14,963 nucleotides of DNA. Origin: Alphaproteobacteria bacterium. Its GTDB lineage: Bacteria; Pseudomonadota; Alphaproteobacteria; UBA828. Under the pieces are notes generated by a model, which did no database searches, was not told where the DNA came from, and was given only the letters and a program-made list of their open reading frames with translations. The first letter of the stretch is position 1. Every line of letters begins with the position of its first letter. Positions 10,602 to 11,546 of this stretch are shown in pieces. Where the stretch lies: contig CAXXMU010000007.1 in NCBI GenBank assembly GCA_963667785.2, forward strand, positions 1 to 14,963, written 5' to 3'. A program made the translations under genes and the position numbers.

Positions 10602-11546
10602 CTACGCCTGGACGGCCGGGATCTCGGGCCCGGTCAGGGTCCTGATCGCGTAGTCGGGCTCGTCGACCCGCGCAAAGCCGACCCGCTCCAGCCAGTCGTC
10701 CGTCGAGAGCGCGAGGATATCCGCATCCTCCGCGATGTTCCTGAACGCGCCGGCGGGCAGCGTCACGTAGGGCGCGCAGGCGAGCGCACAGCCCACGTGG
10801 TTCTTCGGGATGTGCGACGCCTTCCAGCCGATGTAGATCTTCCTGTAGCGCGCGCCCTGGTTCTCGCCGCACAGGTAGGCCGCATAGGCGATCCTGTTGA
10901 GCCTCGCGTCGAGCCTGTCTCTCACGGCCTCCTCCTCGTCCGCCGCATGAGACATGATCCCGGTGTCTTCCATGAAGAGGCAGGCGTGGTTGTCGCGGTC
11001 CTCCGCGATGGCGAAGCCGAGCGCGCACCAGATCCACATCTTGCCGTCGGAGACCGCGCTCGTGCGGTACTTTTCGGCGCAGACGACCATCGCGCCCTCC
11101 TGCGGCGGGAAGTGCCGGCTGTCGGCCACGCCAAAGAGCTGCCGCGTGGCGTCGCGGAGCGGAATGAGGGAGTAGATGGGGATGTTCTCGATGCGGCCGA
11201 CGGGATGGGTCTTGCCGATGCGGGAATCGACCGCGAGGTCGTAGCCCCAGATGGCGCCGTTGACGCCGCTGAACGACGACGCCTGCAGCATGTTGACCTG
11301 GCCGATGTACGAATCGTTACACTCGGCGCGGTCGTAGGACACGATCTCGGCCATGCCCTGGTCCAGGTCTTCCTCGAACGGATAGCCGGGGAACTGCTCC
11401 AGGTTGACGCTGCCCGTAGACAAGAGGACGGTCGAGATGTAGGCCCCAGGCTGCCCCGTCGCCGTGGGCTCCAGGTAGCCCCCGCAGGTGCGCGCCGTCG
11501 TGTTGCGGCAGTTGCGGATGATCTCCGCCAGGCGTGCATCAGCCAT
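10602..11546 (-). CDS. hdcA: Pyruvoyl-dependent histidine decarboxylase proenzyme, 314 aa
   Basis: [24 protein letters not shown]^SFSGVNG.IWGYDL (Ser90-Ser91 cleavage site, nt 11279-11274); [43 protein letters not shown]. These are colinear with Lactobacillus 30a HdcA as I recall it ([49 protein letters not shown]). Confidence 0.9.

Follow-up and report, generated by a model that had tools for sequence, protein, structure and literature searches.

What does a pyruvoyl-dependent histidine decarboxylase (HDC) do in an alphaproteobacterium that carries no antiporter beside it? The question is raised by a 14,963-nucleotide stretch of DNA (the window; GenBank assembly GCA_963667785.2, contig CAXXMU010000007.1, positions 1 to 14,963; Alphaproteobacteria, UBA828), in which an earlier note, made from the sequence alone, had recognised a pyruvoyl-type hdcA at positions 10602-11546. 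Pyruvoyl HDCs have been studied almost only as histamine producers of food and gut bacteria, where an exchanger turns the reaction into acid resistance and proton-motive force. We evaluated the gene, its protein and its surroundings, and consider it moderately probable that it encodes a functional pyruvoyl HDC in an operon for histamine uptake and the oxidative catabolism of histidine and histamine. Because the putative operon also encodes an importer for amines and a homologue of histamine dehydrogenase, HdcA probably feeds histidine breakdown and does not serve acid protection. A catabolic role had been guessed before; its support comes from two features not seen at the time, the PotABCD-like importer and the dehydrogenase homologue.

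The window has a GC content of about 70%, which gives rise to long chance open frames on both strands, and codon-position GC was used to tell real genes (third-position GC, GC3, of 0.92-0.96) from shadow frames. The values for hdcA are 0.61/0.47/0.93, and since they resemble those of the neighbouring genes (GC3 0.92-0.96) the minus-strand reading of 10602-11546 is the coding frame; the plus-strand reading was rejected by the same measure. This bears out the remark that the gene has mostly G/C-ending codons like its neighbours. The start codon is ATG, with a GGGAG ribosome-binding site 7 nt 5' of it. Window GC is 0.61-0.68 across 7200-11700 compared with about 0.69-0.75 in the flanks; recent horizontal acquisition of hdcA is suggested neither by its GC3 nor by the conserved synteny described below.

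The 314-residue product matched the Pfam HDC family PF02329 with an E-value of 1.1e-45 and 156.5 bits (gathering cutoff 25 bits), residues 18-292 aligning to positions 17-292 of the 294-position profile, which confirms the original assignment. Against the solved Lactobacillus 30a (L30a) enzyme (PDB 1HQ6/1PYA) the alpha chain matched with an E-value of 1.7e-22 and the beta chain with 0.002. L30a residue numbers were carried over to HdcA through this alignment, with an offset of +9 in the beta chain. At the cleavage site, NMLQAS/SF in HdcA (slash after Ser90) lies opposite NMTTAS/SF in L30a (slash after Ser81). Self-cleavage of the proenzyme is predicted to fall between Ser90 and Ser91 and to convert Ser91 (11274-11276) into the pyruvoyl cofactor; it would give a beta chain of residues 1-90 (11277-11546, minus strand) and an alpha chain of residues 91-314 (10605-11276, minus strand), matching the 90-aa and 224-aa lengths foreseen in the earlier note. 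The L30a proenzyme cleaves itself slowly without a helper.

The catalytic residues are intact. Tyr62, Asp63, Glu66, Ser81, Ser82 and Phe83 of L30a correspond to Y71, D72, E75, S90, S91 and F92 of HdcA, and Lys155, Phe195 and Glu197 to K159, F191 and E193; all nine, which had been listed as apparently retained, are invariant in an alignment of 23 diverse PF02329 family members (23/23). Ile59 is also kept, as I68. We take Ile59, Tyr62, Asp63, Glu66, Lys155, Phe195 and Glu197 to form the active site and substrate pocket of L30a, and Asp63, Ser81, Phe83, Phe195, Glu197, Ile59 and Tyr62 to hold the imidazole and carboxylate groups of the substrate. On these grounds mature HdcA would decarboxylate L-histidine to histamine. 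The suggestion that the enzyme is adapted to neutral pH found no support: Asp53 and Asp198, presumably the pH-switch pair of L30a, are represented by D62 and D194, both kept and invariant in the same 23 sequences, so there is no sign of lost pH regulation.

Consistent with this assignment, an AlphaFold2 model built on the 23-sequence alignment (mean predicted local distance difference test score, pLDDT, 80.5; predicted template modelling score, pTM, 0.83; low confidence in residues 63-75 and 81-88, around the cleavage loop) found 1pya_B as its best PDB fold match, with an E-value of 2e-14, a target-normalised template modelling (TM) score of 0.81 and a root-mean-square deviation of 2.2 Å over 222 columns. 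Matches ranked 2-13 were pyruvoyl arginine decarboxylases (PvlArgDC; PF01862; 1N2M, 1MT1), enzymes of distantly related fold and about 160 aa that are without the HDC-specific N-terminal part; to PF01862 the match of HdcA is much weaker than to the HDC family, at 22.5 bits against a cutoff of 22.7. The ratio of nonsynonymous to synonymous substitution rates (dN/dS) was 0.09-0.22 in all eight pairwise comparisons with relatives, and hdcA is thus under purifying selection.

HdcA therefore has the Pfam family, predicted fold, Ser-Ser site, active-site residues and Asp53/Asp198 equivalents of the L30a enzyme (1PYA, 1HQ6, 1IBT-1IBW; TIGR00541), from which it nevertheless differs considerably. It is 29% identical to the L30a-type representative P0150, which was used for identity and loop comparisons, and has about 10 extra residues before the IVSYD helix, 8 fewer after CAEK and two further loops shorter by 5 and 5 residues. 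The insertion, the shorter loop and the nine cysteines (positions 13, 21, 76, 156, 174, 189, 226, 253 and 257) are as previously described. On TIGR00541 HdcA scored 155 bits, under the equivalog cutoff of 346.65, which is passed by only two of 115 family members, P0150 (581) and P0131 (460), the other 113 falling short.

We next placed the protein in its family. Among 1.84 billion representative proteins, a profile search (E <= 0.001) returned 412 clusters of the PF02329 type, so the pyruvoyl HDC family is small. A genome scan with hdcA as query, a procedure that favours query-like sequences, gave 79 loci (L-numbers), among them loci from Alphaproteobacteria, Bacteroidota, Acidobacteriota, Chlamydiota, Cyanobacteriota, Chlorobiota, Actinomycetota and Thermodesulfobacteriota. 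In a maximum likelihood tree of 88 rows (quick search, LG+G4, Shimodaira-Hasegawa-like approximate likelihood ratio test, SH-aLRT, as the only support measure), the window protein, L001-L008 and P0024 form a clade with 100% SH-aLRT. The clade is nested in a 13-row group with L010 and the P0031/P0037 pair, and a branch with 99% support splits it from the canonical group, ruling out a place within the characterised Firmicute HdcA group. The window HdcA is thus supported as a divergent, distinct alphaproteobacterial subclade, much as the earlier note had proposed; its inference of a proteobacterial host likewise held, the window being 91.6% identical in DNA over 13.3 kb to L001, a contig of a Rhodospirillales metagenome-assembled genome (MAG). 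The oddity of a pyruvoyl HdcA outside low-GC Gram-positives had, on the other hand, been overstated. In its accessible part, PMC8465708 already reports pyruvoyl hdcA from six phyla including Proteobacteria, describes hdcB as only 'occasionally' adjacent to hdcA, and refers to a species list, Table S1, that may include Alphaproteobacteria; and 30 of our 79 loci have an APC-family permease within 5 kb. The enzyme itself is an ordinary addition to a known family, and it is the operon link to a histamine dehydrogenase that is new.

The surroundings of hdcA carry this link. Positions 4494-14962, most of the window, hold one array of genes on the minus strand, in which hdcA lies between a gene for an IclR-family transcriptional regulator (11559-12323; NCBIfam BhcR, PcaR and IclR models matched with E-values from 1e-35 to 1e-19, none reaching its cutoff) and that for an ATP-binding cassette (ABC) ATPase (9476-10564), as first described. 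The latter is PotA-like with a TOBE_2 domain (PF00005, PF08402; TIGR01187 potA 375 bits, cutoff 355.6). It is followed by genes for PotB-like (8550-9476; PF00528; NF007044 PotB E 2e-70) and PotC-like permeases (7727-8548; PF00528; NF007047 PotC E 5e-65), a PotD-like periplasmic amine-binding protein (6656-7723; SBP_bac_8) and the dehydrogenase homologue (4494-6570). Between the iclR stop and the hdcA start lie 12 nt, and between the hdcA stop and the potA start 37 nt; along the series that runs from iclR to the dehydrogenase the successive gaps are 12, 37, -1, 1, 3 and 85 nt. No terminator-like site was found in 4300-12500, where 2.2 were expected, and a promoter scan found none; at 70% GC these two absences give weak support to co-transcription.

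The importer resembles those of the spermidine/putrescine type. The binding protein matched E. coli PotD (1POT/8Y5H) with E-values of 1e-57 to 1e-60 and 196-207 bits, and likely starts at the ATG at 7693, which is followed by a signal-peptide-like N-terminus. It keeps 9 of 12 residues that we take to be the ligand contacts of PotD, and therefore fits an amine ligand; the other three differ. As had been claimed for hdcP, no exchanger accompanies hdcA: no APC-family permease (AA_permease, AA_permease_2) was present among the window genes or within 5 kb of hdcA in L001-L008, and no exporter or antiporter was found in the window or these eight related loci. There is no hisRS beside the window hdcA, and every window open reading frame (ORF) with GC3 >=0.9 was otherwise assigned, leaving none for hdcB, as judged without an HdcB sequence or profile. 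L30a-type loci thus differ from the window, where neither antiporter, hdcB nor hisRS was seen beside hdcA. The difference extends to the hdcA-antiporter clusters (hdcP, gadC/aaxC/adiC-type) that PMC8465708, as far as its available text goes, describes also outside Firmicutes: these have the same decarboxylase family with an adjacent APC exchanger and often a second decarboxylase, whereas the window has an ATP-driven importer, a product-consuming dehydrogenase and no exchanger.

The gene at 4494-6570 belongs to the histamine dehydrogenase family with 6-S-Cys-FMN, 4Fe-4S and ADP, Old Yellow Enzyme/FAD-type oxidoreductases, and is present as two frames. The earlier note stopped at the ABC ATPase, and this gene went unrecognised there. 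The frame changes at about 6200, as seen in the GC3 plot, with the junction at ...REVPMG/PTGLPVAS...; here the window has five G (about 6201-6205) where relatives, L001 among them, have four, a +1 frameshift and the sole uncompensated indel in the gene relative to L001. The L001 orthologue is intact at 691 aa and 92-97% identical to the two window fragments. It matched the histamine dehydrogenases of Nocardioides simplex (3K30, 892 bits) and Rhizobium sp. 4-9 (6DE6, 891 bits) better than 6L6J (711 bits) and trimethylamine dehydrogenase (1DJN, 540 bits), and the gene beside the importer is thus a full-length homologue of the first two. Going by the residue list in the available part of PMC10180351, the window copy and those of L001, L006 and L007 retain Cys35, to which FMN is linked, the triad Tyr176/His179/Asp270 and six of the eight residues proposed to bind histamine.

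These data allow us to hypothesise how the gene set might work. hdcA would be co-transcribed, probably, with iclR, the importer genes and the dehydrogenase gene, with IclR controlling the set. The PotABCD-type importer would take up an amine, histamine being the likeliest, and histamine from both uptake and decarboxylation would be oxidised by the dehydrogenase to imidazole-4-acetaldehyde and ammonia. The module would in this way yield nitrogen, and possibly carbon, from histamine and intracellular histidine. A xanthine-dehydrogenase-family molybdenum enzyme encoded upstream of iclR may act further down, on the aldehyde or the imidazole ring.

To evaluate whether the arrangement recurs we located the window proteins in the other loci by tblastn. 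The cluster is found in eight related MAG loci of Alphaproteobacteria/Rhodospirillales, L001-L008; complete chromosomes with the cluster are OZ243972.1, OZ253557.1 and OY763937.1. The order xanthine dehydrogenase-iclR-hdcA-potA-potB-potC-binding protein is present in L001, L002, L003, L006 and L008, and the contigs of L004 and L005, which end early, agree as far as they go. As far as the contigs extend, the molybdenum-subunit gene lies 5' of iclR in 8/8 loci. iclR adjoins hdcA in seven of the eight; in L007 potA directly follows iclR, and the order is xanthine dehydrogenase-iclR-potABCD-dehydrogenase-hdcA, beyond which different genes lie (pyruvate dehydrogenase complex, lipoyl synthase). In L007, therefore, hdcA has been relocated yet stays in the cluster, and the association has survived one rearrangement. 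L001, L006 and L007 have an uninterrupted dehydrogenase gene adjoining the cluster, and in the first two it follows the binding-protein gene.

Several points nevertheless weigh against a histamine-catabolic operon, and some of them concern descent. The eight supporting loci are close kin, with 82-95% amino acid identity, and because they are, most of what their gene orders have in common is a matter of inheritance; some independence is added only by the rearrangement in L007 and by the L010 locus. The dehydrogenase is present in four of seven informative genomes, the window counted. In L002, L003 and L008, which form one tight sub-lineage, a thiamine pyrophosphate enzyme and an ORF without assigned function take its place. 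It is thus conceivable that the adjacency has no functional meaning, hdcA having come to lie by chance near a polyamine transporter and an amine dehydrogenase, with the synteny simply inherited. In keeping with that, the supporting loci are all confined to a single narrow lineage, spermidine/putrescine models give the PotABCD genes good scores, and no histamine dehydrogenase homologue was found near hdcA in any of the other 71 loci (tblastn, E <= 1e-8). We regard this explanation as very unlikely, given gaps of 12 and 37 nt on one strand with no terminator found, the retention of hdcA inside the cluster after its move in L007, and the fact that the predicted product of HdcA is the substrate after which the closest solved homologues of the neighbouring enzyme are named.

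Other points concern the dehydrogenase itself. The frameshift splits the window copy into frames of 123 and 568 aa and could be a real lesion, making the gene a pseudogene, or a homopolymer sequencing error; unless it is the latter, the route may be truncated in this genome. This observation, together with the sub-lineage that has no dehydrogenase at the locus, could also be accommodated if histamine were the end product, whether exported, used as a signal to a host or neighbours, or made to consume cytoplasmic protons, with the importer and dehydrogenase only recapturing or limiting it. Histamine would then accumulate in genomes without a working dehydrogenase, possibly including that of the window. 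Such an explanation fits an hdcA that stays intact and under purifying selection where the dehydrogenase is missing from the locus (L002, L003, L008) or frameshifted (the window), and a PotD-like protein beside an HdcA homologue between sensor kinases in L026 hints at signalling elsewhere in the family. It is made unlikely by the lack of any exporter or antiporter in the nine loci, by a transporter of the ABC importer type and by a dehydrogenase gene that is still next to hdcA after the L007 rearrangement.

The substrate is the remaining point at issue. In the window, L001, L006 and L007 alike, and thus throughout the clade as compared with 3K30 and 6DE6, Asn115 is replaced by His and Tyr181 by Leu; the latter site is Phe176 of the Rhizobium enzyme, which the accessible portion of PMC10180351 reports as intolerant to substitution. 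Because these two binding residues differ, the oxidised amine may not be plain histamine. Added to this, HdcA stays below the TIGR00541 equivalog cutoff, the function of the clade is a prediction from sequence, and the reason for degrading histidine by way of histamine is not obvious. The pathway might instead handle another substrate pair, starting perhaps from a methylated histidine or from some other basic or heteroaromatic amino acid, which would be a new specificity within PF02329. The 29% identity to the characterised type would suit this, as would the roughly 10 residues that this clade has inserted directly ahead of the helix with Ile59, Tyr62 and Asp63, the changes at 2/8 dehydrogenase positions and those at 3/12 presumed PotD contacts. 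However, the residues that we presume to hold imidazole and carboxylate in L30a are all kept in HdcA, and the dehydrogenase is far nearer to the histamine enzymes than to any other solved relative. We know, moreover, of no other substrate for the pyruvoyl HDC family, and consider a different substrate pair distinctly improbable.

If histamine catabolism is indeed the role of the cluster, it has a described counterpart in the Pseudomonas hin system (HinA transporter, HinC aminotransferase, HinD aldehyde dehydrogenase, HinF/G/H/L and the HinK regulator; PMC8231116, available text). Like hin, the cluster would serve to take up histamine, remove its amino group to give imidazole-acetaldehyde and oxidise it further. 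The window differs in having a dehydrogenase for the aminotransferase, an ABC importer for HinA and an IclR-family for a LysR-family regulator, and the hin pathway as described there includes no histidine decarboxylase. In open-access PMC and bioRxiv literature we found no description of a pyruvoyl histidine decarboxylase and a histamine dehydrogenase in one gene cluster, nor, in the text available there, a described link of the 3K30 and 6DE6 enzymes to a histidine decarboxylase gene; judged by title and abstract, the six papers in these collections that name both enzymes deal with food spoilage or biosensors (for example PMC9227395). The operon suggests a second use of HDC chemistry, in which histidine and scavenged histamine are burned as nutrients. 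If so, a survey in which each pyruvoyl hdcA is scored as a 'histamine secretor' would misclassify possible net consumers of histamine, and the clade would offer a matched set of decarboxylase, binding protein and dehydrogenase with a possible use in histamine sensing. The gains are modest, as the enzyme, dehydrogenase and transporter families are each well known.

The molybdenum enzyme is encoded at the far end of the array by a large, molybdenum-binding subunit of the xanthine dehydrogenase family (12341-14665, minus strand; PF02738, PF20256, PF01315) and by the C-terminal part of a [2Fe-2S] small subunit that leaves the window (14662-14962, minus strand), identified from its translation and from the L001 orthologue (PF01799 and PF00111). 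In the PDB the enzyme is matched best by 4-hydroxybenzoyl-CoA reductase, nicotinate dehydrogenase and aldehyde oxidoreductase, and its scores lie below every NCBIfam cutoff; a role in the histamine pathway is conjectural. The large-subunit gene has an in-frame TGA at 14462-14464 near its 5' end, within an out-of-frame stretch of about 45 nt (14451-14495). Relative to L001, L002 and L006 it has +2 and +1 insertions about 30-40 nt apart in GC-repeat sequence, which bring the TGA into frame and garble about 12 codons of the conserved ...ASARLVRLDVS... segment. The lesions in this gene and in the dehydrogenase gene reflect either genuine decay of the pathway in this genome or mistakes of assembly where G/C-rich runs occur.

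In L001 (1038-9206) and in the same region of L002, L006 and L008, caprolactamase-like HyuA/HyuB, a short-chain dehydrogenase/reductase (SDR) and FAD, [2Fe-2S] and Mo subunits are encoded 5' of iclR on the same strand; HyuA/HyuB belong to an ATP-dependent lactam or hydantoin hydrolase family. This block could form a catabolic operon of its own or supply the later half of the histamine route. Taken furthest, the latter option would make HyuA/HyuB, the SDR, the three-subunit Mo hydroxylase, IclR, HdcA, PotABCD and histamine dehydrogenase one oxygen-independent pathway for the mineralisation of histidine and histamine, which we regard as a long shot. HdcA and the dehydrogenase would yield imidazole-acetaldehyde or imidazole-acetate, the Mo enzyme would hydroxylate the imidazole ring with water, in place of an oxygen-dependent HinF-type monooxygenase, and the ATP-dependent lactamase would open the resulting imidazolone or hydantoin ring. 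If true, this would be a new route of imidazole ring degradation, begun by a catabolic pyruvoyl decarboxylase.

To set the cluster against the rest of the family, the ORFs lying no more than 5 kb from hdcA were clustered for the 79 loci and representatives annotated; as some contigs are short, the counts are lower bounds. The exchanger context, marked by an APC-family permease, accounts for at least 30 loci, often alongside a second decarboxylase, of the Orn/Lys/Arg type in 8 loci and of the pyruvoyl arginine type in 7 (Bacteroides), so that the 'usual' acid-resistance context is well under half of the sample. At least eight loci belong to the window's clade and nine, from Roseobacter-type and related bacteria, have a TGL-like protein and a BTAD/AAA_16 regulator; the remaining 32 are heterogeneous, with Ser/Thr kinases, carboxypeptidases and aldehyde dehydrogenases among the neighbours. 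The alphaproteobacterial L010 HdcA, the nearest outgroup among the loci at 41% identity, has a class-III aminotransferase, a PuuC-like aldehyde dehydrogenase and another PotABCD set within 6 kb. This neighbourhood looks amine-catabolic with different enzymes, a weak independent parallel to the window operon, and through its aminotransferase and aldehyde dehydrogenase stands nearer to hin as the accessible text presents it. In the same locus (L010:10974-20445) HdcA also lies beside DUF1028, RidA and an M20 deacylase.

Further contexts were seen in passing. In L026, from an Anaerolinea MAG (8245-16313), a PotD-like binding protein comes directly after the hdcA homologue, with hybrid sensor kinases on the flanks, and this arrangement suggests that histamine or a related amine is sensed. 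In three Acidobacteriota loci (L009:1869-4343, L011:10922-13321 and L043:3225-5648) the immediate neighbour of hdcA is a Ser/Thr protein kinase that has TPR repeats. The TGL-like/BTAD arrangement is a third family context and forms one clade in the tree: in L017, L018, L021, L031, L035, L036, L039, L045 and L047, hdcA comes right after a 451-aa TGL-like protein (PF20085) and near a 1260-aa BTAD/AAA_16 regulator, encoded at about 8600-9990 and 4700-8500, respectively. Two of these, L045 and L047, both have hdcA at 10001-10810, the same neighbours and nearly identical HdcA proteins (tree branch lengths 0.0005 and 0.025), although one MAG is labelled Alphaproteobacteria and the other Anaerolineae, which points to a binning mix-up or a very recent transfer.

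The rest of the window, beyond the array, holds ilvA (1-1389, minus strand) and two plus-strand genes, for a family-III CoA-transferase (1719-2903) and a carboxyltransferase (2839-4455), both with annotated starts. With these starts the two ORFs overlap by 65 nt (2839-2903). The tblastn match of the carboxyltransferase begins at residue 3 in L001 and at residue 37 in L006, and its true start is probably further downstream.

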